This document shows positions 1-11,027 of a DNA stretch of 18,555 nucleotides, piece by piece; the first letter of the stretch is position 1, and each line of letters begins with the position of its first letter. The translations under genes and the position numbers were made by a program. Source of the stretch: a virus (taxonomy: Duplodnaviria; Heunggongvirae; Uroviricota; Caudoviricetes); IMG/VR virus record IMGVR_UViG_2630968500_000002, positions 1 to 18,555 of that record; one strand, given 5' to 3'. The notes below the pieces were generated by a model that saw only the letters and a program-made list of their open reading frames with translations, had not been told where the DNA came from and ran no database searches.

Positions 1-36
1 GACGTAAACCAAACCTTAATCGGGAGATACTGCACT

Positions 37-279
37 ATGAGCACTGATATTTCAATTCGTGTACCAAAAGAGATGGCTACGCCTGCAGAGTTCGCGGAAT
101 GGGAAGGTATCTCCCGCGGCTCCGTGTATCAAAAAATTCACCATGGTCAGCTTGCTAAATACATGGTCAAGAAAGAAAAAAACAAAGGCCGCGTAAGTCT
201 GCGTTATTTAATGTACAAAACCGATCAGGTCCGTGAATCCCTCGGTCATTCCAACTTCCGCGTCATTGTTGGTAAGTGA
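37..279 (+). CDS. Cox/Apl-like small DNA-binding regulator or excisionase (putative), first gene of the early lytic operon
   Basis: 80 aa ORF with GGGAGA RBS about 9 nt upstream of ATG; basic protein with a helix-turn-helix-like segment (AEFAEWEGISRGSVYQKI); lies immediately upstream of a CII-like gene, as apl does in phage 186. Function inferred from position and size only. Confidence 0.45.
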   Translation: MSTDISIRVPKEMATPAEFAEWEGISRGSVYQKIHHGQLAKYMVKKEKNKGRVSLRYLMYKTDQVRESLGHSNFRVIVGK

Positions 280-311
280 GTTCAATTATGAGAACTTTCT
301 AAGGGGATAGC

Positions 312-821
312 ATGTTTGATTATAAGATTTCCAAACACCCGCATTTTGATGAAGCCTGTAGAGCTTTTGCACTTCGTCACAATATGGCGAAGCTGGCAGA
401 ACGTGCAGGAATGAATGTCCAGACTCTGCGAAACAAACTCAACCCAGATCAACCGCATCAGCTCAATGCGCCAGAAATCTGGCTGCTTACCGATCTGACT
501 GAAGATTCAACGCTGATAGATGGTTTTCTGGCACAGATTCACTGCCTGCCATGTGTACCGATTAATGAGGTAGCAAAAGAGAAACTGCCGCATTACGTCA
601 TGAGTGCAACCGCAGAGATCGGGCGTGTTGCTGCAGGTGCGGTATCTGGCGATGTAAAAACCAGTGCAGGTCGTCGTGATGCTATCAGCAGCATTAACTC
701 TGTAACACGACTGATGGCGCTGGCTGCTGTTTCACTGCAGGCCCGTTTACAGGCTAACCCTGCGATGGCGAGTGCAGTTGATACCGTGACTGGCCTCGGT
801 GCTTCATTCGGTTTGCTGTGA
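312..821 (+). CDS. cII: Phage regulatory protein CII (186 CII / CP76-like)
   Basis: 169 aa ORF, same length as 186 CII as I recall it; N-terminal region MFDYKISKHPHFDEACRAFALRHNMAKLAERAGMNVQTLRNKLNP resembles the 186 CII family HTH region from memory; positioned second in the early operon. Confidence 0.65.
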   Translation: MFDYKISKHPHFDEACRAFALRHNMAKLAERAGMNVQTLRNKLNPDQPHQLNAPEIWLLTDLTEDSTLIDGFLAQIHCLPCVPINEVAKEKLPHYVMSATAEIGRVAAGAVSGDVKTSAGRRDAISSINSVTRLMALAAVSLQARLQANPAMASAVDTVTGLGASFGLL

Positions 822-828
822 GGTGCTT

Positions 829-1029
829 ATGCTTACGAAAGAACCATCATTTGCATCGCTGCTGGTTAAACAAAGCCCGGCAATGCACTACGGTCACGGC
901 TGGATCATGGGTGAGGATGGTAAACGCTGGCATCCGTGCCGTTCACAAGATGAATTGCTGGCAGAACTATCTACGAAAAAACGGGGGAACAAATGGCTAT
1001 TGAAGGCGCTGCGGCGACTGTTCCATTAA
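829..1029 (+). CDS. Hypothetical early protein (66 aa)
   Basis: ATG at 829 preceded by GAGGTG RBS; the ORF-track start at 799 has no RBS. Compact early-operon context. Function unknown. Confidence 0.45.
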   Translation: MLTKEPSFASLLVKQSPAMHYGHGWIMGEDGKRWHPCRSQDELLAELSTKKRGNKWLLKALRRLFH

Positions 1030-1334
1030 GCCCCGGTGAACGCCTGAATGGACTTAATCATATTGCGGAGTTAAGGGCGAAAGTTTTTGGTCTTAATATT
1101 GAGTCAGAGCTTGAACGGTTTATTAAAGATATGCGTGATCCACGGGATATTAATAGCGAACAAAATAAACGGGCACTGGCTGCCATATTCTTTATGGCAA
1201 AAATTCCAGCTGAACGTCATAGCATCAGCATTAATGAGCTGACCACTGACGAAAAGCGGGAGTTGATTAAAGCAATGAATCATTTTCGTGCAGTGGTGAG
1301 CTTATTTCCCAGACGGCTAACCATGCCGAATTAA
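993..1334 (+). CDS. Hypothetical early protein (113 aa)
   Basis: ATG at 993 preceded by GGGGGAA RBS; overlaps the previous gene by 37 nt in a different frame; no alternative in-frame start downstream. Confidence 0.55.
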   Translation: MAIEGAAATVPLSPGERLNGLNHIAELRAKVFGLNIESELERFIKDMRDPRDINSEQNKRALAAIFFMAKIPAERHSISINELTTDEKRELIKAMNHFRAVVSLFPRRLTMPN

Positions 1335-1401
1335 CCAACTAATGAAATTAATGGCGTAAACCCGCCGGGCATCCCTTTATCTAAATTCAGGAGTATTGAT
1401 T

Positions 1402-1635
1402 ATGCGTAATATTGAAACCCTCACGACTAAAACCGGACCGGATGACGCAGGGCTAAATATTTTACTGACAGAGGCTCGTCTGGAAGAACGCCGGGCAAGG
1501 GCTGAAGCAATGGCTGCCCGCCTTGATAGTCTTGCGTGTCATATCACATCCCGCCAGCTAAACCACGTCGAAGCGGCAGAACTGCTGCGTGTGACCGCTG
1601 AAGCAATCCAGAACGAAGCGCAGGAGATCCACTAA
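1402..1635 (+). CDS. Small early protein, DUF2732-like (P2-family conserved hypothetical)
   Basis: AGGAG at 1388-1392 followed by ATG at 1402; the ORF-track start at 1396 is TTG. Stop TAA overlaps the next start (TAATG at 1633-1637). Family assignment is from memory and uncertain. Confidence 0.55.
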   Translation: MRNIETLTTKTGPDDAGLNILLTEARLEERRARAEAMAARLDSLACHITSRQLNHVEAAELLRVTAEAIQNEAQEIH

Positions 1636-1862
1636 TGGCTGATGCAATGGATCTCGTACAGCAGCGCGTTGAAGAAGAACGCCAGCGCCATATTCGTGCT
1701 GCCCGTGCCAAAACACCGGGCGTGTCTCGCGTGCTTTGCATTGAATGTGAAGTGCCAATTCCGCCAGCACGCCGCCGCGCCATTCCTGGAGTGCAGCTTT
1801 GCATTACCTGTCAGGAAATCGCAGAGCTGAAAGGCAAACATTACAACGGAGGTGCTGTATGA
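1635..1862 (+). CDS. TraR/DksA-family C4-type zinc-finger protein
   Basis: 75 aa with two CxxC pairs (CIECEV ... CITCQE) in the typical DksA/TraR spacing; start overlaps the upstream stop and the stop overlaps the dam start (ATGA), indicating translational coupling. Confidence 0.7.
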   Translation: MADAMDLVQQRVEEERQRHIRAARAKTPGVSRVLCIECEVPIPPARRRAIPGVQLCITCQEIAELKGKHYNGGAV

Positions 1863-2716
1863 GCACCATCCTGAAATGGGCGGGAAATAAAACCGCAATT
1901 ATGTCCGAACTGAAAAAACACCTTCCTGCTGGCCCGCGACTGGTTGAACCTTTCGCGGGTTCCTGTGCAGTGATGATGGAGACGGAGTACCCCAGCTATC
2001 TTGTTGCGGATATTAATCCTGATTTAATCAACCTCTATAAAAAGGTTGCTGCTGATTGTGAATCGTTTATATCTCGCGCCAGAGTTTTATTTGAGATCGC
2101 AAACAGGGAGGTGGCTTATTACAACATAAGGCAGGAGTTTAATTACTCAACTGAAATTACTGATTTCATGAAAGCGGTATATTTCCTGTATCTCAATCGT
2201 CACGGTTACCGTGGTTTATGTCGCTATAACAAGAGCGGGCATTTCAACATTCCCTACGGTAATTATAAAAATCCGTATTTCCCTGAAAAAGAAATTCGCG
2301 CATTTGCAGAAAAAGCCCAGCGGGCAACGTTTATCTGCGCCAGCTTTGATGAAACGCTGGCGATGTTGAAGGCGGGGGATGTGGTGTATTGCGATCCGCC
2401 GTATGACGGTACGTTTTCCGGTTATCACACTGACGGTTTCACTGAAGATGACCAGTATCACCTTGCATCCGTTCTTGAACATCGGTCATCAGAAGGACAT
2501 CCGGTCATTGTTTCTAACAGTGACACATCCCTGATCCGTTCGCTGTATCGCAATTTTACTCACCACTATATCAAGGTAAAACGCAGCATCGGTGTGGCAG
2601 CTGGCGAGGGTAAATCAGCAACAGAAATCATTGCTGTTTCCGGGCCGCGCTGCTGGGTGGGATTTGATTATTCGCGTGGCGTGGATAGTTCTGCCGTGTA
2701 CGGAGTACGTGCATGA
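1859..2716 (+). CDS. dam: DNA adenine methyltransferase (Dam-like, GATC-type N6-adenine MTase)
   Basis: N-terminus [15 protein letters not shown]....LVEPFAGS and a DPPY catalytic motif (VYCDPPYDG) are hallmarks of Dam-family MTases. ATG at 1859 with GGAGGTG RBS; the ORF-track start at 1799 is an upstream extension. 285 aa. Confidence 0.85.
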
Positions 2717-5127
2717 GTCATGCCGATATGAACAACTGCAGCGGCGTTAACGAGGTCGCCGCAGCATTCTCATGGAACAGCCCGAAAAAGGCTATTAACC
2801 CTTATCTGGACCCGGCGGAAGTTGCGCCGGTTTCTGCGCTTTCAAACCTGATCACTCTGTACGCTACCGATAACGAGCAGGAACAGCTGCGCCGCGAGGC
2901 ACTGAGTGATCAGGTCTGGGAGCGTTATTTCTTTAATGAATCCCGTGATCCTGTCCAACGCGAAATGGAGCAGGATAAGCTTATTAGCCGGGCAAAGCTG
3001 GCGCATGAGCAGCAGCGTTTTAATCCAGACATGGTCATTCTGGCGGACGTTAACGCCCAGCCTTCCCATATCAGCAAGCCGCTGATGCAACGTATTGAAT
3101 ACTTCAGCAGACTGGGCAGGCCAAAGGCTTATTCCCGCTATTTGCGTAAGACGATTAAGCCATGTCTGGAACGGCTGGAGCATGTACGCGACAGTCAGCT
3201 ATCCACTTCTTTTCGCTTTATGGCAAGCCATGAAGGGCTGGACGGCCTGCTGATTCTGCCTGAAATGAGTCAGGATCAGGTAAAACGCCTGTCCACCCTG
3301 GTAGCTGCGCATATGAGCATGTGCCTTGATGCCGCTTGTGGCGATTTGTATGCCACCGATGATGTTAAGCCAGAAGAAATCCGCAAGACATGGGAAAAGG
3401 TAGCAGCGGAAACCCTGCGACTGGATGTCATACCGCCTGCGTTTGAGCAACTTCGTCGGAAAAGAAACCGCCGCAAACCCGTGCCCTATGAACTCATTCC
3501 GGGTTCGCTGGCGCGTATGTTGTGCGCCGACTGGTGGTATCGGAAATTATGGAAGATGCGTTGCGAATGGCGGGAAGAGCAGTTGCGTGCTGTCTGCCTG
3601 GTCAGCAAAAAAGCATCTCCCTATGTTAGCTATGAAGCCGTGATGCATAAACGTGAGCAGCGCCGCAAGTCACTGGAGTTTTTCCGTTCTCATGAACTGG
3701 TGAACGAAGACGGCGACACGCTGGACATGGAGGATGTGGTAAACGCCAGCAGCAGCAACCCTGCGCATCGCCGCAATGAGATGATGGCCTGTGTTAAAGG
3801 TCTGGAGCTTATCGCGGAAATGCGCGGTGACTGCGCCGTTTTCTACACCATCACCTGTCCGTCACGTTTCCATTCCACGCTAAATAACGGCAGGCCCAAC
3901 CCGACCTGGACAAATGCGACGGTAAGACAAAGCAGCGATTATCTGGTCGGCATGTTTGCTGCATTTCGTAAGGCTATGCATAAAGCCGGGTTGCGCTGGT
4001 ATGGCGTGCGGGTGGCTGAGCCTCATCATGACGGCACCGTTCACTGGCACCTATTGTGTTTCATGCGCAAAAAAGACCGCCGCGCCATCACTGCATTACT
4101 GCGTAAGTTTGCCATCCGTGAAGACCGCGAGGAGCTGGGCAATAACACGGAGCCACGCTTTAAGTCTGAGCCGATAAACCCGCGCAAAGGAACGCCGACA
4201 AGCTACATCGCGAAATACATCAGTAAGAACATTGACGGGCGTGGTCTGGCTGGCGAGATCAGTAAGGAAACGGGTAAATCCTTGCGTGATAACGCTGAAT
4301 ACGTTAATGCCTGGGCGTCTCTGCATCGTGTACAGCAATTCCGCTTCTTTGGTATTCCGGGACGTCAGGCTTACCGTGAACTTCGCTTGCTGGCTGGTCA
4401 GGTGGCAAGGCAACAGGGTGACAAAAAAGCAGGTGCGCCGGTACTGGATAACCCGCGTCTTGATGCCATTCTGGCTGCTGCTGATGCTGGTTGTTTTGCT
4501 ACCTACATCATGAAGCAGGGCGGCGTACTGGTTCCCCGTAAATATCACCTCATCAGAACCGCTTATGAAATCAACGAAGAGCCGACCGCCTATGGCGATC
4601 ACGGTATTCGTATTTATGGCATCTGGTCACCAATTGCAGAGGGCAAGATCTGCACTCATGCAGTGAAGTGGAAAATGGTTCGTAAAGCCGTTGACGTTCA
4701 GGAGGCGGCAGCCGACCAGGGCGCTTGCGCCCCTTGGACTCGTGGCAATAACTGTCCCCTTGCTGAAAATTTGAACCAACAAGGGAAAGACAAATCAGCT
4801 GATGGGGATACCAGGACGGACATTACCCGCATGGATGACAAGGAGTTGCACGATTACCTGCACAGTATGAGCAAAAAAGAGCGCCGGGAACTGGCTGCAA
4901 GGTTACGCCTGGTGAAACCGAAACGGCGTAAAGACTACAAACAGCGAATTACAGACCATCAGCGACAGCAGCTAGTCTATGAACTGAAGTCCAGAGGATT
5001 TAATGGCAGCGAGAAAGAGGTCGATTTACTCCTTCGCGGCGGCAGTATTCCGTCAGGAGCAGGCCTGCGTATCTTCTATCGGAACCAGCGTTTGCAGGAA
5101 GATGATAAGTGGCGAAACCTGTATTAA
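2713..5127 (+). CDS. A: Replication initiation endonuclease A (rolling-circle Rep, P2 gpA-like)
   Basis: 804 aa; HUH-like motif VHWHLLCF and a two-tyrosine active-site motif [10 protein letters not shown] typical of P2 gpA / phiX174 A-type rolling-circle initiators; start overlaps the dam stop (ATGA at 2713-2716). Confidence 0.85.
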
Positions 5128-5219
5128 TTACGCGGGTTAACAATTCGTGCTCTTAATAATACCAGGCATATCAGGCTAATGAACGTAAAAAAACGTTTTA
5201 CATCAGTAAGATTATTATA

Positions 5220-5239
5220 TACTGTAAATATAAACAGTG
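5220..5239 (+). promoter_or_regulatory. LexA operator (SOS box) upstream of the tum-like module
   Basis: TACTGTAAATATAAACAGTG read directly: CTGT, then an 8-nt AT-rich spacer, then ACAG. Matches the E. coli LexA box consensus TACTGT(AT)4ACAGTA; located about 42 nt upstream of the ATG at 5281. Confidence 0.7.
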
Positions 5240-5280
5240 GTTATGTATACAGTATTGCTTGTGGTGTCATAGGAGGAAAG

Positions 5281-5469
5281 ATGCAGGACTATTTTTTGGA
5301 GTCTTTGAAGCTCCAGCGCATTGATTTTTTTCTTAAGCTTGTAGCGGCTAGTGAGTGTAGTGATGAAGAGAAGGGGCTGGCTTTGCAGTGGGTTTCTGAA
5401 CTGACAGATGAACTCATGGCAAAAATCAGAACCCACGAATACAACCGCTCAATGGATGTCATCAGCTGA
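5281..5469 (+). CDS. Small protein (62 aa) cotranscribed with the DinI-like gene; possible N-terminal Tum antirepressor-like moiety
   Basis: ATG at 5281 preceded by AGGAGGAAAG RBS; the ORF-track start at 5179 would place the LexA box inside the coding region, so the downstream start is preferred. Acidic protein, no recognised domain. Confidence 0.5.
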   Translation: MQDYFLESLKLQRIDFFLKLVAASECSDEEKGLALQWVSELTDELMAKIRTHEYNRSMDVIS

Positions 5470-5479
5470 GGTGACCTTT

Positions 5480-5713
5480 ATGCGCATTGAAATAATGATC
5501 GATAAAGAGCAGAAGATTAGCCAGTCTACCCTGGACGCCCTTGAATCCGAGCTTTACCGCAATCTGCGCCCCCTGTATCCCAAAACGGTAATTCGCATCC
5601 GCAAAGGTAGCTCTAACGGTGTGGAACTGACCGGACTGCAACTGGACGAAGAAAGAAAACAAGTGATGAAGATTATGCAGAAGGTGTGGGAAGACGACAG
5701 CTGGCTGCATTAA
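5480..5713 (+). CDS. DinI-family protein (DNA-damage-inducible protein I-like; Tum C-terminal-domain-like)
   Basis: 77 aa starting MRIEIMIDK...LDALESEL...WEDDSWL, which aligns by eye with E. coli DinI (MRIEVTIAK...IDALAGEL...WESADDW); GAGGTGA RBS before ATG 5480; LexA box upstream of the two-gene unit. Confidence 0.8.
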   Translation: MRIEIMIDKEQKISQSTLDALESELYRNLRPLYPKTVIRIRKGSSNGVELTGLQLDEERKQVMKIMQKVWEDDSWLH

Positions 5714-5719
5714 GAAAAG

Positions 5720-5760
5720 TTGCTGGCGTCTGAACTTGGTTCTGGCGTCAGCAAGGTTGA
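5720..5760. terminator. Putative hairpin terminator between the convergent DinI-like and secreted-protein genes
   Basis: Inverted repeat TTGCTGGCGTC (5720-5730) / GGCGTCAGCAA (5744-5754), with an A-tract upstream on the + strand (equivalent to a T-tract on the - strand). Confidence 0.4.
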
Positions 5761-5872
5761 ACAACGAGTACAGTGAGGCGTTAGGTGTGGCGTTTATTTG
5801 ATGAGTGAACGCCCGTTCTGCGACAGGTTCGGAGATTAAGGTTGAAACTACGGGCAAAATACCATCTTTTTC

Positions 5873-6298
5873 CTACTTAATTGAGTCCAGTAACAAGTTA
5901 CAGTTACTCTCATTGTAGAGAGAACGAGCAATTAGTGTTACCTGCTTTCCATTCATTCCCGGCTTATCCCATAACACAGCTTCTTGCGACGCCACAAATT
6001 CAGCATAATCAATTATGCGTTGTTCGTGATCTGGTTCCTCATAGCCAAAGTATGAGAGCGCATCGTTGTAAGCGTGGTAAGCTGCTTTCTGTAATATCTT
6101 GATATCGGCTGTAGGTACTAGCTCCGTGTAGCTAGGATCTAATTGTGTGCTACTGCCATAGAATGCACATGAAAGGTAAGATATTGATTTCTGTTGAGCT
6201 TTAGTTCCTTTCTCATAGTTTTTAGCTGTTACCGCCTGAACTGGGACGCTAACAAAGCTTGTAACCAGAATTAAAATTAATACGTAAAAGCTTTTCAT
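5873..6298 (-). CDS. Secreted/periplasmic protein of unknown function (cargo/moron gene)
   Basis: 141 aa; N-terminal signal peptide MKSFYVLILILVTSFVSVPVQA with AxA-type cleavage context (VQA/VT); GAGGT RBS 5 nt upstream on the - strand. Low GC (21 G+C in the 60 nt at 6181-6240) against about 60% in the structural genes. Transcribed opposite to the flanking phage genes. Confidence 0.7.
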   Translation of the reverse strand: MKSFYVLILILVTSFVSVPVQAVTAKNYEKGTKAQQKSISYLSCAFYGSSTQLDPSYTELVPTADIKILQKAAYHAYNDALSYFGYEEPDHEQRIIDYAEFVASQEAVLWDKPGMNGKQVTLIARSLYNESNCNLLLDSIK

Positions 6299-6571
6299 TT
6301 TGACCTCAGCCGAAACGTTAGAGAGACTATCGAAATTTGTAAAACCCGTGGCGATTCAGTTTGAGATCCTCCCCCTTACATGATTTTTAATCAAATATAT
6401 GCTTTTGTAAGCATACCTGTTAACCGAATTATTTATTTTTAGAGATCTTCCGACATACTGATTATGCCCGCTGAGGAGTTCACCTTGCGTAAAGTCCGAT
6501 TCGCTTTACTCGTCTGTGCATGTCTATGCTGCATGAGATTGCATGATCGTTTGAGGATCGTTTTTGCTAAG

Positions 6572-6595
6572 GCCCCCCAGAACTGGCGGGCTTTT
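6572..6595 (+). terminator. Putative GC-rich hairpin plus T-tract (terminator-like) in the cos-proximal intergenic region
   Basis: GCCCCCCAG..CTGGCGGGC stem with one mismatch, followed by TTTT; could instead be part of the cos packaging region. Confidence 0.3.
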
Positions 6596-6640
6596 GCGTA
6601 GATCATGCTCCTGCATGAAAACCACTACATAAAGCGGGCA

Positions 6641-6659
6641 GGCGTGGCGGGGATACGAG
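6641..6659. other. Candidate cos (cohesive end) site of the P2/186-type phage genome
   Basis: GGCGTGGCGGGGATACGAG; the first 13 nt are identical to the 19-nt cohesive-end sequence of 186 as I recall it (GGCGTGGCGGGGAAAGCAT; P2 is GGCGAGGCGGGGAAAGCAC). Lies between the end of the early/accessory region and the portal gene, as expected for cos. Confidence 0.4.
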
Positions 6660-6738
6660 CGCGCGCAAACATGTTTACTTGCAATTAATGTAGATATATT
6701 CTGAAATTGATAACTTACACATGAAAGGAGACGTGAGA

Positions 6739-6930
6739 GTGGCAAAATATACACCGGGCCAGAAAGTAAAACATGCAACAGGACATGGTCCAATCATGGT
6801 AATTGATCACTACCAATCGGCTACAATGGCAGTTTGTACGTGGTTTATTGGTGCTAAGAACCAGCGCGGAGTTTTTCATGAAGATACTCTAGTTTTATTT
6901 GTTCCAAAAGCTGAGAGTGATGATGAATGA
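6739..6930 (+). CDS. DUF2158/YodC-like small protein (63 aa)
   Basis: AGGAG at 6726-6730 then GTG at 6739, which is better RBS spacing than the ORF-track ATG at 6721. Sequence AKYTPGQKVKHATGHGPIMVIDHY fits the YodC/DUF2158 pattern (GD.V.LKSGGP.MTV) as recalled. Stop overlaps the downstream gene. Confidence 0.55.
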   Translation: MAKYTPGQKVKHATGHGPIMVIDHYQSATMAVCTWFIGAKNQRGVFHEDTLVLFVPKAESDDE

Positions 6931-7189
6931 TTCTCTGATAAAAATAGTTGACTGGATGGTTAATACCACTCGTTCTAATGGTGTGTTGTATCAGTCCGAG
7001 GTTGTTGAATTTCTAATCAATGACTTTGGGGACGAGTTCATCAAAACTAATGAGAATGGTAATTACGCTATAAGCAGTACTGTGCTAGCAAATTTTAGAA
7101 AGGCTAGCAAAGACGATATAGTTTGGGATCGTGAACAGTTAGCTTGGCGTTTACGCAATGAAAGCGATTTACCCGGACGGATGCAGTAG
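6920..7189 (+). CDS. Hypothetical small protein (about 89 aa), translationally coupled to the DUF2158-like gene
   Basis: ATG ATG at 6920/6923 overlapping the upstream stop (GATGATGAATGA); no recognised domain; followed by a terminator hairpin. Confidence 0.55.
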   Translation: MMNDSLIKIVDWMVNTTRSNGVLYQSEVVEFLINDFGDEFIKTNENGNYAISSTVLANFRKASKDDIVWDREQLAWRLRNESDLPGRMQ

Positions 7190-7206
7190 AGATAATACAG
7201 ATAATA

Positions 7207-7247
7207 GTGAACAAGCTGATAATTTCAACTTGTTCACTTCTTTTTTA
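7207..7247. terminator. Putative bidirectional rho-independent terminator between the small-gene pair and portal gene Q
   Basis: Inverted repeat GTGAACAAG (7207-7215) / CTTGTTCAC (7229-7237), followed by TTCTTTTTT on the + strand; lies just downstream of the Q stop on the - strand. Confidence 0.6.
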
Positions 7248-8288
7248 TGACTGATTATTTTCTAAGCCATAATATTCAAATTTGACTACCTCTTCATCTA
7301 ACCATTCATTAATTTCGGCAATGCGTTTTTGTAAAGGCATCAGTTCATTCCGAACAAATACCCGGCTGGCTTTCTCCACATCCCCAAACCCCCCTACATT
7401 ATTAGGCATAATCCCCATCATCTGCGGCGGCACTCGGTGTGCTGCCATCATGTCGTCCCGGCTCACGTTCTTGATATTCAGAAACTCATCCTTCGCCGCG
7501 ACTTCTGACAACGGGATGATCTGAAGCCCGTCCTTTTTGCCGTTAGGCGAGTACATAAACAGATTGCGGAAGTTACCTGGTCCTTTGGCGCTTTTCATCG
7601 CATTGCGGAGGTTGTTCACATCCTCCTGGTTTTGCGCGGCATCGGTCATGTACATGATGAAGCCTGCATGACTGCCGTTAATGTAATACTTTCGACGGAA
7701 CAGCGTGGCGGACTCGTTGAGCAGGGCAGACGGAATTGCAGAAAGATAACCGGGCAGGCCGTAGATCTCCTGATTAATATCTGGTTCCATTAGATGAAAA
7801 ATGCTGCCTTTCGTGAACTGATACGGCTGGGTTGTCATACCGTATTGCACAAACCAGTAGGTATCCAGGTCTAACCCGCGTCGGGTGTATTTTGCCAGCG
7901 CAGGCTCAAGGGCGATAACTTCACCGAATCGGTTCGTGCGTTTCTCCAGGTAGGCGTTACCAAATACCAGATAGTCCTGCACAAAACGCGAAAAAGCCTG
8001 CTGGCTGAGCAGCGGATGAGGGATATAGGTACTGGTCAGAATGTTGCACTTTACTGCAATCGGGGAACTGTGATGCACGGCGGCGCGGAAGGTGCGCGCC
8101 AGTCCGTCAAAGCTGACGGGCGGCTCATACCAACGGTCCATCTGTACGCATTCCACATAGTCCAGCAGTTCACGGCGGTCCAGAACAGGAACGGGATCGC
8201 CGAAGCTGAATGCTTCGGCTGTAGTTTGACTTTTAAGCTGGATCTTTTTCGTCGCCGCAGCTCGGTTCTTCTTACTCTTTCCCATCAA
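7245..8288 (-). CDS. Q: Portal (capsid portal) protein, P2 gpQ-like
   Basis: 347 aa (P2 Q is of similar size as recalled); divergent from O-N-M-L and directly downstream of the terminase ATPase gene on the same strand, the canonical P2 Q-P arrangement. Confidence 0.85.
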   Translation of the reverse strand: MMGKSKKNRAAATKKIQLKSQTTAEAFSFGDPVPVLDRRELLDYVECVQMDRWYEPPVSFDGLARTFRAAVHHSSPIAVKCNILTSTYIPHPLLSQQAFSRFVQDYLVFGNAYLEKRTNRFGEVIALEPALAKYTRRGLDLDTYWFVQYGMTTQPYQFTKGSIFHLMEPDINQEIYGLPGYLSAIPSALLNESATLFRRKYYINGSHAGFIMYMTDAAQNQEDVNNLRNAMKSAKGPGNFRNLFMYSPNGKKDGLQIIPLSEVAAKDEFLNIKNVSRDDMMAAHRVPPQMMGIMPNNVGGFGDVEKASRVFVRNELMPLQKRIAEINEWLDEEVVKFEYYGLENNQS

Positions 8289-10051
8289 AAAATCTCCACA
8301 ATATTGCTGGTATTGGCGGATTCGCCCTGCAGCGGTTCGTTAAACAGTGCGTGCATCGTTGCCCATGCCAGATCGGCGTGGCTGGCTTCTTCGCTGCGGC
8401 TGGCTTCATAGGTCGGGCGGTTGCCACTGGCGGTGGTGGCGCGACGGATTGCCATAAATGACTGCGCAATGTCGGTATGTCCGGCGTCAAACTCCAGACG
8501 GCGGTGGCTGATAATGTCGTAGGCCTTGAGTACCAGGGCGTTTTTAACGTTGGGGTTGTAGACAAACTCCCGGACGGCAGGAAAGAACGCTTTCACGTTC
8601 TCGTAAACCCCGTGACCAACGCCGGTTGAGTCGATGCCGATGTAGGTCACGTTGTACTGCTCGGTCAGTTTTTTGATTGCGTCAGCCTGGGCGCGGAAGT
8701 CCATCCCGCGCCACTGGTGACGCTCAAGAATGCGGAACTTACCGCCCGGCACGGCTGGCGGTGCCACCACCACGCATCCGGCGCTGTCGCCGTTCTGCGT
8801 ACCTTTTGCCGGGTCATAACCGATCCACACTTCGCGCCAGCCAAACGGGCGCAGGGCCAGAGCATGAAAGTCGGTCCAGACTTCCCAACTGTCCACCATG
8901 CACGCCTGCAGCTCGCTGAGCGGAAACACGGACGCGAGATCGTCCACAAACTCGCACATCAGTAGGTTCTGGTATTCGTCCGGGCTGTACTCCATGCGCA
9001 ACTGGTCGAGGTCGAACAGGTTACAGCCGCCGCGCACCGCATCTTCCACAGTGACTATCTGGCGGTACTGCCCGTCTGCGCACAGCAGGCCGGGGGCCAG
9101 ATTGCTGTGGGACAGGTCGATGTCCACCTTATCGGCTTTGTTGCGCCCACGATTGAACAGCGCACCGGACCAGAACGGATAAGCACTGTGAGTCAGGCTG
9201 GATGGCGTGGAAAAATAGGTTTGTCGCCATTTTTTGTGAATAGCCATACCGGAAGCCACTTTGCGCAGCTCCTGGAATTTCGGTATCCAGAAATATTCAT
9301 CCAGATACAGGTTGCCGTGATAACTCTGGGCAGTGCGGGCATTGGTGCCGAGGAAGTAAAGCGTGGCCCCGTTAGGAAGCACCATCGGATCGCCTTTCAA
9401 CTCCACCTCCACTTCTTTGGCGAAGTCGATGATGTACTGCTTAAAGACGTGGGCCTGTGCCTTGCTGGCGGAAAGGAAAATCTGGTTACGTCCGGTAAGC
9501 AGGGCGTCAATCAGGGCTTCACGGGCAAAGTAAAAGGTCGCGCCGATCTGGCGTGACTTCAGCAGGTTGCGGATGCGGTTGGCTTTTCCGGCTTCCCACC
9601 AGTGGCGCTGGTAGTTGAACATGGAGGAATGGAAGATTTCTTCCAGCTTCTCAATCTGCTCATCGGTGAAAACATTCTTTTCCGGCTGACGGCGCGGGCC
9701 TTTGTTGCGGTTGGCGACGTTAGGGTTTAAGTCGGCTTCGTTGCCGCCATTGTTAAACTTGCCGATCCGCGCGTGGCGCTCCGACTGGCGCGCCAGCAGG
9801 TCAATCTCTTTGAAATCTTTCCCTTCTTTGTGCTCCTTCATAATGAGCTGGCAGTAGCGTGCGGCGGTGGTGAGCTGCATCTGATCCAGCGGCCCATAGT
9901 CACCCCACTTGTCGCGTTTTTTCCAGCTGTGAACAGTTGCAACTTTCTCGCCCAGCATTTCAGCAATGCGGGCGACGCGGTATCCCTGAAAGTACAGCAG
10001 CATGGCCTGCCGACGGGGATCGAGATCTGCGGGTGTCAGTGTGGTGTTCAT
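8285..10051 (-). CDS. P: Terminase ATPase (large) subunit, P2 gpP-like
   Basis: 588 aa, matching P2 gpP size as recalled; its stop overlaps the Q start; divergent from the scaffold gene O across a late-promoter region. Confidence 0.9.
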   Translation of the reverse strand: MNTTLTPADLDPRRQAMLLYFQGYRVARIAEMLGEKVATVHSWKKRDKWGDYGPLDQMQLTTAARYCQLIMKEHKEGKDFKEIDLLARQSERHARIGKFNNGGNEADLNPNVANRNKGPRRQPEKNVFTDEQIEKLEEIFHSSMFNYQRHWWEAGKANRIRNLLKSRQIGATFYFAREALIDALLTGRNQIFLSASKAQAHVFKQYIIDFAKEVEVELKGDPMVLPNGATLYFLGTNARTAQSYHGNLYLDEYFWIPKFQELRKVASGMAIHKKWRQTYFSTPSSLTHSAYPFWSGALFNRGRNKADKVDIDLSHSNLAPGLLCADGQYRQIVTVEDAVRGGCNLFDLDQLRMEYSPDEYQNLLMCEFVDDLASVFPLSELQACMVDSWEVWTDFHALALRPFGWREVWIGYDPAKGTQNGDSAGCVVVAPPAVPGGKFRILERHQWRGMDFRAQADAIKKLTEQYNVTYIGIDSTGVGHGVYENVKAFFPAVREFVYNPNVKNALVLKAYDIISHRRLEFDAGHTDIAQSFMAIRRATTASGNRPTYEASRSEEASHADLAWATMHALFNEPLQGESANTSNIVEIF

Positions 10052-10087
10052 GGCACAAACCTACAGCCTTGAATGAAGGCTTTCCCC

Positions 10088-10105
10088 GCCTGCGGTTTGT
10101 GTGGT
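10088..10105. promoter_or_regulatory. Candidate late-promoter activator site (TGT-N12-ACA) in the divergent P/O control region
   Basis: TGTGTGGTTGTCGGTACA read directly. P2/186 late promoters activated by Ogr/B carry a TGT-N12-ACA dyad centred near -55; this site lies about 95 nt upstream of the O start codon. Confidence 0.45.
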
Positions 10106-10193
10106 TGTCGGTACAAATACCGCGCATTGTTTCACTGCCCCCATCACCGCAACCATAAGGCTCCAGTAAGTTTTTTCTAACGGAGCACGGCTC

Positions 10194-11027
10194 ATGACAG
10201 TGAAAGCAAAGCGTTTTCGCATCGGGGTGGAAGGTGCCACCACCGACGGACGCGAAATCCAGCGTGAATGGCTGGAACAGATGGCAGCCAGCTACAACCC
10301 GGCGGTGTATACCGCGCTGATTAACCTTGAGCACATCAAGTCTTATCTGCCGGACAGCACCTTTAACCGCTACGGCAAGGTGACGGCGCTGTTTGCTGAA
10401 GAAATCACGGAAGGTCCGCTGGCAGGCAAGATGGCGCTGTATGCCGACGTTGAGCCAACGGAATCCCTGGTGGAACTGGTGAAAAAAGGCCAGAAATTAT
10501 TCACCTCTATGGAAGTCAGCCCGAAGTTTGCTGATACGGGCAAAGCCTACCTGGTCGGCCTGGCTGCCACTGATGACCCTGCCAGTCTGGGCACTGAAAT
10601 GCTGACATTCAGCGCCAGTGCAGCCCATAACCCGCTGGCAAACCGCAAGCAGAATCCCGCCAATCTCTTTACCGCCGCAGAGGAAACGGTGATCGAACTG
10701 GAAGAAATCCAGGAGGACAAGCCGTCCCTGTTTGCCCGCGTCACGGCACTGTTCACCAAAAAAGAGCAGTCCGACGATGCCCGGTTCTCTGATGTGCATA
10801 AGGCCGTGGAGCTGGTCGCCACTGAGCAGCAAAACCTGAGCGCACGCACCGAAAAATCCCTGTCTGAGCAGGAAGAACGTCTGTCTGAGCTGGAGACTGC
10901 CCTGCAGGCACAGCAGACCGCCTTTAACGAACTGGTGAATAAGCTGAGTCATGAAGACAGCCGCCAGGACTACCGCCAGCGTGCAACAGGCGGTAACGCC
11001 CCCGCTGACACTCTGACCAATTGCTGA
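10194..11027 (+). CDS. O: Capsid scaffolding protein, P2 gpO-like
   Basis: 277 aa; CGGAG RBS 8 nt upstream of the ATG; first gene of the rightward late operon preceding the major capsid gene; acidic coiled-coil-rich C-terminal half typical of scaffold proteins. Confidence 0.85.
   Translation: MTVKAKRFRIGVEGATTDGREIQREWLEQMAASYNPAVYTALINLEHIKSYLPDSTFNRYGKVTALFAEEITEGPLAGKMALYADVEPTESLVELVKKGQKLFTSMEVSPKFADTGKAYLVGLAATDDPASLGTEMLTFSASAAHNPLANRKQNPANLFTAAEETVIELEEIQEDKPSLFARVTALFTKKEQSDDARFSDVHKAVELVATEQQNLSARTEKSLSEQEERLSELETALQAQQTAFNELVNKLSHEDSRQDYRQRATGGNAPADTLTNC

Follow-up and report, generated by a model that had tools for sequence, protein, structure and literature searches.

A split tum module behind a predicted double SOS box in a P2/186-like prophage of Escherichia coli

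In phage 186, it is well established that LexA represses the promoter p95 and that Tum sequesters the repressor CI (Lamont 1989; Brumby 1996; Shearwin 1998). Tum of 186 is a single 146-aa protein, in which an N-terminal antirepressor moiety is fused to a DinI-like moiety, and translation from an internal GTG additionally yields the DinI-like part by itself. Lemire, Figueroa-Bossi, and Bossi (PLoS Genet 2011, PMC3121763) described Tum as resembling an antirepressor fused to DinI and reported that tum is split by a stop codon in the phages Fels-2 and PSP3. According to a personal communication quoted in the same article (PMC3121763), and thus available only at second hand, the upstream of the two PSP3 genes carries the antirepressor activity. 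The database record of PSP3 (AY135486 / NC_005340) describes tumA as 'similar to 5' end 186 tum; UV induction of prophage' and tumB as 'similar to dinI and 3' end of 186 tum'. Lemire et al. 2011 (PMC3121763) credit Bunny, Liu, and Roth (2002) with noting the split of tum in Fels-2, and the title of the 2002 paper states that lexA null mutations are lethal in Salmonella because of Fels-2. The Fels-2 operon STM2726-2728 is among the operons whose expression changes after exposure to the mutagen MX.

A comparable pairing is found in the prophages Gifsy-1, -2, and -3, in whose LexA-repressed operons a DinI homologue is accompanied by a small antirepressor, encoded by gfoA, gftA, or gfhA (PMC3121763). 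The Gifsy antirepressor inactivates a non-cleavable repressor by binding to it, and non-polar deletions of dinI in Gifsy prophages have no effect on induction (PMC3121763). The Gifsy operons differ from the module described below in that dinI comes first, the reverse of the order found here, and in that they belong to lambdoid phages with an unrelated repressor family.

The existence and the logic of such a module are already established for 186, PSP3, and Fels-2. To these, the locus analysed here would make modest additions, which come from sequence comparison: a predicted double SOS box, stand-alone genes for putative TumA proteins, and a pattern in which one TumA allele appears to accompany many CI alleles.

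The prophage and its closest relatives

The window, by which we mean the whole stretch of 18,555 nucleotides that was analysed, is a P2/186-like (Peduoviridae) prophage. Small early genes and a Dam methylase gene lie between Fil and gpA, the SOS module is situated between gpA and a short variable stretch, and past this stretch the portal and terminase genes follow on the opposite strand, from position 7245. The features to which we refer are as follows:

37-279: Apl/Cox-like excisionase gene, which opens the window
312-821: CII gene (Pfam PF06892)
after CII: Fil gene (Pfam PF10893)
2713-5127: gene A, encoding the replication endonuclease gpA, which precedes the SOS module
5197-5713: SOS module
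5197-5202, + strand: -35 hexamer TTTACA, assigned by homology to 186 p95
5220-5239, + strand: predicted LexA box 1, TACTGTAAATATAAACAGTG
5235-5254, + strand: predicted LexA box 2, CAGTGGTTATGTATACAGTA
5272-5276, + strand: Shine-Dalgarno sequence of ORF1, GGAGG, 4 nt before the ATG
5281-5469, + strand: ORF1, tumA-like, candidate antirepressor gene, 62 aa (ATG at 5281, stop at 5467-5469)
5468-5474, + strand: Shine-Dalgarno sequence of ORF2, GAGGTGA, overlapping the TGA stop of ORF1
5480-5713, + strand: ORF2, tumB/DinI-like gene, 77 aa (ATG at 5480), in a frame different from that of ORF1
5720-5754, + strand: 15-bp hairpin without a U-tract, found by RNA folding just after ORF2; a possible transcript end
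5873-6298, opposite strand: next gene after the module

A position after gpA is the layout common to 186, Fels-2, PSP3, and six other phages. A prophage of E. coli 300709 is 99.5% identical to the window across positions 1-10995. The CI gene lies just outside the window; in the 300709 prophage, it encodes a 210-aa CI of the 186 type, which is 96% identical to the CI of Klebsiella phage Kp4846-2. A PADLOC search returned zero matches for ORF1, ORF2, and three cargo ORFs.

The module is a split form of the 186 tum gene, of the kind already known from Fels-2 and PSP3. ORF1 is 98% identical to STM2728 of Fels-2, which is annotated as 'hypothetical protein', and ORF2 is 100% identical to STM2726.1, which is annotated as 'DinI family protein; similar to TumB of PsP3'. 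The promoter and the double SOS box of Fels-2 differ little from those of the window, and the position after gpA, the 10-nt spacer between the two ORFs, and their frame relation are the same. Fels-2 is a prophage of Salmonella Typhimurium LT2, whereas the host here is E. coli; the cargo genes downstream differ, and the Fels-2 CI is only 58% identical to the CI that accompanies the module in the 300709 prophage.

PSP3 resembles the window in that its tum follows gene A and a LexA box and is split into two cistrons, and its TumB is 78% identical to ORF2, whereas its TumA is only 22% identical to ORF1. Moreover, PSP3 has a single LexA box where the window has two, and its tumA and tumB share one frame, with a TAG and one codon between them, whereas the ORFs of the window lie in different frames. 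In 186, the genomic position is the same, the LexA box likewise lies over a TACTGT -10, and a TT(T/C)ACA -35 is found 17-18 nt upstream. Unlike the window with its two cistrons, 186 has the two moieties fused; its LexA box is single, and a third gene, orf97, follows downstream. Taken with the evidence presented below, the locus is very probably the SOS operon of a Fels-2-type P2/186 phage (Peduoviridae) with a split tum.

Predicted LexA sites and a p95-like promoter

An earlier reading of this DNA, made from its letters alone (the sequence-only reading), had proposed a near-consensus LexA operator about 42 nt upstream of a two-gene unit. The operator was recovered as box 1, which scores 17/20 against the consensus. 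TACTGTAAATATAAACAGTG is the only CTGT-N8-ACAG in the 18.5 kb of the window and the sole match in it to the LexA consensus TACTGTATATATATACAGTA at three or fewer mismatches. The placement upstream of the two genes also holds, with an exact distance of 41 nt between the end of box 1 and the ATG of ORF1. What the same reading had stated of 186, namely a LexA-repressed tum gene at the equivalent position with a DinI-like C-terminal part, is likewise correct: tum follows gene A, a LexA site covers the -10 of p95, and the C-terminal half of Tum is DinI-like.

The first six bases of box 1, TACTGT, would serve as the -10 of the promoter, with the TTTACA hexamer 17 nt upstream as its -35. A generic sigma-70 promoter scan called no promoter at the module, because the predicted promoter (TTTACA-17-TACTGT) copies 186 p95, of which the -10, TACTGT, is weak. 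The annotated SOS promoter p95 itself reads TTCACA-18-TACTGT, and its geometry is the same as that of the window promoter.

An alignment of upstream sequences from six Fels-2-type phages with diverged flanks was read as a footprint. The conserved blocks are TTTACA, box 1, the ribosome-binding site, and GTGG(T/A)TAT-N4-TACAGT at 5237-5253. Specifically, the TTTACA -35 is unchanged in all six phages, whose flanks differ, and the sequence AGGAGG is invariant. The fourth block falls within box 2, which shares 5 nt with box 1 and scores 15/20 against the LexA consensus, its right half being perfect; its half-sites GTGG.TAT and TACAGT are invariant in the six phages, and the central 4 nt vary. The sequence-only reading had missed this second box, which overlaps the first. 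Across a wider set of related loci from several genera, a TACTGT-N8-ACAGT box is found upstream of a TumA-like ORF in nine of nine cases, and the box is single in the other six relatives (186, PSP3, ESSI-2, ev129, ENT90, and the Yersinia YenM phages).

These observations bear on the possibility that the LexA-like palindrome is a chance, non-functional match and that the two genes are transcribed by read-through from the early operon, of which gene A is the last gene. The silence of the sigma-70 scan agrees with such read-through, as does the outcome of a consensus terminator scan, which called nothing at the module and nothing between gene A and ORF1. Yet none of 200 shuffles of the window gave any match within 3 mismatches of TACTGTATATATATACAGTA, box 1, the -35, and box 2 are all conserved where the flanks diverge, an equivalent LexA box recurs in the nine loci, and the same weak -10 belongs to the annotated SOS promoter of 186. 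Read-through behind a fortuitous palindrome is thus scarcely credible.

Taken together, the two predicted LexA sites make up a double SOS box of the colicin type, with overlap. When plasmids were searched with the operator sequence, many small mobilizable plasmids matched, and in the one that was inspected, the matching stretch is 43 nt upstream of the colicin N gene. The 37-nt operator closely resembles the colicin N promoter (AACTGTATATAAAACCAGTGGTTATGTGTACAGTATT in ColN and TACTGTAAATATAAACAGTGGTTATGTATACAGTATT in the window). The design with overlapping SOS boxes is thus common to the window and to colicin operators (e.g. those of colicins N and E1), with the ColN sequence nearly the same. 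The colicin operators drive a toxin gene, whereas the operator of the window would drive a candidate prophage antirepressor; in addition, box 1 of the window overlaps the -10, whereas the ColN boxes lie just downstream of it. At colicin double SOS boxes, two LexA dimers are bound and there is no detectable basal expression (PMC2994835). By analogy, very tight repression without basal expression would be expected of the double operator described here.

For the SOS operon reading, the sequence, the precedent of 186, and that of the colicins together suggest how the module would be held in check. In the lysogen, host LexA would occupy the two overlapping SOS boxes, which cover the -10 and the start region of the p95-like promoter, and both genes would be kept tightly off. 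DNA damage would lead to activation of RecA and self-cleavage of LexA, upon which the promoter would fire.

ORF1 and ORF2 as counterparts of the two parts of Tum

The sequence-only reading had called two ORFs of 62 and 77 aa in different frames, the second of them preceded by its own GAGGTGA ribosome-binding site and encoding a DinI-like product, and it stands in all these respects. A 96-aa version of ORF1 beginning at an ATG at 5179 was dismissed, as it would start upstream of the promoter and operator.

ORF2 matches the Pfam DinI family (PF06183) over profile positions 1-63 of 63 with an E-value of 6.6e-23 and 81.3 bits (cut-off of 24.2), and the structure of E. coli DinI (1GHH) matches it with an E-value of 2.7e-6. 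Its score of 42.7 bits is below the cut-off of 111 bits of the NCBIfam equivalog model for chromosomal DinI (NF007893), and ORF2 is therefore DinI-like rather than an orthologue of the host DinI. It is about 41-42% identical to residues 71-146 of 186 Tum, and the ORF2-like stretch of Tum starts exactly at the internal GTG that gives rise to the 76-aa 'truncated Tum' product. The pN/pS ratio of ORF2 (0-0.14) indicates purifying selection. In the C-terminal helix of ORF2, lysines occupy the positions of two glutamates of E. coli DinI, and binding of ORF2 to RecA is therefore plausible but not assured. ORF2 would most likely act on the host RecA filament and tune the SOS signal, and it would probably be dispensable for derepression itself.

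ORF1 falls in PHROG 698 ('unknown function') with an E-value of 3.6e-38, and searches of Pfam and NCBIfam gave no family for it. It is also under purifying selection, as its pN/pS is 0.08-0.16 in comparisons with relatives in which about 50% of synonymous sites have changed. An AlphaFold model of ORF1, based on an alignment of 30 sequences, is a two-helix hairpin (helices at residues 2-23 and 28-61; pLDDT of 90). A sequence search of the PDB with the ORF1 family profile gave no match, and a Foldseek comparison of the model with the PDB returned generic helical hairpins only, none at E <= 0.001.

The relationship of ORF1 to the N-terminal part of 186 Tum appears remote but consistent. Direct BLASTP comparisons of ORF1 with 186 Tum and with PSP3 TumA gave no match. 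As PSP3 TumA and 186 Tum also lack a BLASTP match to each other, the N-terminal moiety of Tum evidently evolves fast. In a single comparison by phmmer, ORF1 and 186 Tum score 14.3 bits. An hhalign comparison of a narrow ORF1 family with a narrow 186-type family places columns 4-43 of the one on columns 4-43 of the other, with no offset (P of 0.001); the shallowness of the two profiles limits the hhalign probability to only 21%.

Other Peduoviridae provide a series of intermediate sequences, graded in their similarity to ORF1: small ORFs that lie after gene A and are preceded by a LexA box. The counterpart in Escherichia phage ESSI2_ev129 has 51% identity to ORF1, and that in Cronobacter phage ESSI-2 has 43%. 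The protein of Yersinia phage YenM_324 is intermediate, with 32% identity to ORF1 (BLASTP) and 42-45% identity to the N-terminus of 186 Tum. The core shared along the series is ...(Q/E)R(I/V).(L/F)...(L/M).A...C.....(I/L)AL.W(I/V).E(L/I)... We built a family HMM from the ORF1 relatives together with the ESSI-2 and ev129 proteins and searched with it 771 six-frame ORFs from ten loci. Among these 771 ORFs, the model picks out only ORFs that lie behind a LexA box: those of YenM_324 (E-value of 2e-9), YenM_06.16-2 (7e-6), 186 (Tum, 1.4e-4), and Erwinia phage ENT90 (6e-3), the next score having an E-value of 2.4. PSP3 TumA is an outlier and is at noise level in this search (E-value of 2.9). These comparisons support ORF1 as a putative remote homologue of the N-terminal part of 186 Tum.

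The sequence-only reading had left a choice between a Tum that is naturally split and a DinI-like modulator accompanied by a distinct small antirepressor, and had proposed a check of collinearity with 186 Tum. In the alignments, ORF1 falls on residues 4-43 of Tum (by profile-profile comparison) and ORF2 on residues 71-145. Of the two options, the split Tum is thus the one retained, and the distinct antirepressor is set aside.

In a full scan of 1.84 billion representative proteins, the ORF1 family comprises 88 representative clusters, nearly all of them stand-alone proteins of 50-100 aa. The N-terminal part of the 186 type is also widespread as a stand-alone 'Tum protein' of 63-78 aa. The fused arrangement of 186 is therefore one state among several and not the rule.

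A different way of arriving at a Tum-like product would be recoding at the ORF1 stop, by a +1 frameshift or by readthrough, which would join the two ORFs into a protein of 143 aa. A +1 shift at the TGA at 5467-5469 would read EVTF and then continue into ORF2, the product would have about the size of 186 Tum, and the shared frame of PSP3 tumA and tumB is in keeping with such a fusion. Related loci, however, show that the spacer between the two ORFs varies in length, being 10 nt in the window, 11 nt in SopEPhi, 12 nt in Yersinia MLG42, and 11 nt in Klebsiella ST437phi4.1. The two ORFs thus do not keep a constant relative frame, which makes a recoding fusion unlikely. Furthermore, neither a slippery codon nor an upstream Shine-Dalgarno sequence of the prfB type is found at the ORF1 stop, ORF2 has a Shine-Dalgarno sequence and an ATG of its own, and none of the 88 clusters of the ORF1 family contains a member fused to a DinI domain. 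The purine-rich block before the ORF2 ATG is kept in the 10-12 nt spacers of the relatives. We therefore regard recoding as highly improbable and treat the module as two separately translated cistrons.

TumA, CI, and the distribution of the module

With the two cistrons taken as a split tum, the last step of the proposed induction would be carried out by ORF1. Homology, the annotation of PSP3 tumA, and the literature suggest that ORF1 would bind the 186-type CI, that the lytic promoter would then no longer be held, and that the prophage would induce. Biology of the 186 type, inducible by the SOS response, had been predicted by the sequence-only reading, and it fits both the early genes (Apl/Cox-like, CII, and Fil) and the published case of Fels-2.

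The two products differ in how well they are conserved. Between PSP3 and the window, TumB is 78% and TumA 22% conserved, which fits a constant host target (RecA) for TumB and a variable phage target (CI) for TumA. In addition, a TumA-like gene stands behind a LexA box with no DinI-like gene in five phages (ESSI-2, ESSI2_ev129, ENT90, YenM_324, and YenM_06.16-2), and the small protein is therefore the indispensable part.

The same allele of TumA occurs with dissimilar repressors. Phages whose ORF1 is 98-100% identical to that of the window have CI proteins that are only 36-63% identical (to the Fels-2 CI). This divergence is located mostly in the linker and the C-terminal domain (23-58% identity). 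The N-terminal DNA-binding domain is 59-82% identical and includes the invariant block SKST.A.R..RD.FPA.W.IQC.LETG. The CI proteins found with this shared TumA are Fels-2-type repressors whose C-terminal oligomerisation domains are strongly divergent.

The presence of one ORF1 allele beside divergent CI proteins is unexpected for a specific antirepressor. It is therefore a point in favour of the view that ORF1 is not an antirepressor at all and that the module is an SOS-induced cassette that modulates the host (RecA or cell physiology), with prophage induction depending on something elsewhere. The lack of a Pfam family, of a solved relative, and of an informative fold match for ORF1, together with its RefSeq label of hypothetical protein, is also compatible with that view. 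Nevertheless, the CI proteins paired with identical ORF1 share the conserved N-terminal domain, which could be their common target; ORF1 and the antirepressor half of 186 Tum are homologous, remote as the relationship appears; and TumA-like genes retain the LexA box and their position even where the DinI gene is absent. Fels-2, blamed for lexA-null lethality in the title cited above (Bunny, Liu, and Roth 2002), carries the same module. On balance, a purely host-directed cassette is unlikely, and we continue with ORF1 as a candidate antirepressor.

If ORF1 acts on CI, covariation between the two proteins may point to the domain concerned. Among eleven phages, TumA identity is correlated with the identity of the CI N-terminal domain (Mantel rho = 0.80, p = 2e-4), and its correlation with the identity of the C-terminal domain is not significant (rho = 0.20, p = 0.12). 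A linkage control with eight phages shows that TumA identity also follows that of the adjacent gpA (rho = 0.65), and that no such relation to gpA holds for the CI N-terminal domain (rho = 0.20). Between 186 and PSP3, gpA is 85% identical, TumA 29%, and the CI N-terminal domain 36%. These comparisons suggest, without being conclusive, that TumA may act on the N-terminal DNA-binding domain of CI; the covariation of TumA and CI may also be due to linkage.

We tentatively extend this suggestion to a scenario that is possible, though on present evidence rather doubtful, in which one near-invariant TumA docks on the CI N-terminal domain and so inactivates the whole range of these Fels-2-type CI repressors, and in which an SOS response gated by the unusually tight double LexA operator cross-induces P2-like prophages residing in the same cell in E. 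coli, Klebsiella, and Salmonella.

The module is present in 1125 of 5426 complete E. coli genomes (about a fifth), and it is also found in many phages of Klebsiella and Salmonella. RefSeq still lists ORF1 as 'hypothetical protein', PHROGs gives 'unknown function' for it, and the 62-aa gene could be named a TumA-like antirepressor gene; the value of the present findings is mainly in such annotation. The double SOS box and the association of one TumA allele with many CI alleles may merit follow-up. For the P2/186-like prophages that are common in these bacteria, the module would decide whether they wake after DNA damage, such as that caused by fluoroquinolones.

Occurrence and annotation of the SOS module

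When window positions 5130-5760 were compared with RefSeq E. coli, 1125 of the 5426 complete genomes proved to carry the SOS module, comprising the TumA-like ORF1 and the DinI-like ORF2. Throughout RefSeq E. coli, ORF1 is annotated as a 'hypothetical protein', and in one Klebsiella phage record it is labelled a 'levan regulatory domain protein'.

The E. coli 300709 chromosome carries a prophage that is near-identical to that of the window and from which most late genes are gone; the genes for its scaffold and tape-measure proteins appear in the annotation as partial pseudogenes. The ssrA (tmRNA) gene adjoins the tail-gene end of this prophage, and an 'anti-phage dCTP deaminase' gene lies immediately past its integrase.

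Part of the region upstream of the module was also observed in the Klebsiella pneumoniae 'plasmid' p1878-9k (NZ_CP072999.1), a circular record of 9.1 kb that has the terminal part of gpA together with the promoter and its box 1, the first of the window's two overlapping LexA boxes. In p1878-9k (1501-1544), likeness to the window ends at the junction of box 1 and box 2, and a gene for a group II intron reverse transcriptase is located approximately 360 nt beyond the end of similarity. The operator of p1878-9k may have been interrupted by an intron or another insertion.

Hairpin and cargo genes downstream of the SOS operon

Directly 3' of ORF2, the window contains a strong hairpin without a U-tract, on which a terminator scan made no call. 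Farther downstream, a variable cargo stretch (5873-7189) separates the SOS operon from the portal gene. The features of this region are as follows:

5720-5754: strong 15-bp hairpin
5873-6298, minus strand: 141-aa protein, PHROG 7437, unknown function
6721-6930: 69-aa ORF, weak DUF2158 match
6899-7189: 96-aa DUF6953 protein

None of the three cargo ORFs has a PADLOC match. In relatives, the cargo position is occupied by other genes, among them one for a Hypoth_Ymh-domain protein in 813R9. Unlike the window, Fels-2 lacks the hairpin; its sequence departs from the window's straight after the ORF2 stop, and its two ORFs at the cargo position are different.

TumA-like genes and their CI repressors

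In five Peduoviridae phages (ESSI-2, ESSI2_ev129, ENT90, YenM_324 and YenM_06.16-2), a LexA box and a small TumA-like ORF are situated downstream of gene A, with no DinI-like gene in any of them; in ESSI-2 and YenM_324 this ORF is wholly unannotated.

In the cI frames of PSP3 and Klebsiella phage ST11-VIM1phi8.4, the N-terminal helix-turn-helix domain is encoded twice in tandem, ahead of the C-terminal domain. The annotated PSP3 cI (286 aa; locus L017, 101-961) covers both copies. In ST11-VIM1phi8.4, both copies fall within a 316-aa open frame, and the annotated cI CDS (locus L015, 250-1023) starts within the first of them.

In phages that share an identical TumA (CI genes at loci L010-L016), this one allele is coupled with widely differing CI repressors, and their C-terminal domains account for most of the differences. 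Where TumA itself diverges, it does so in step with the N-terminal domain of CI.
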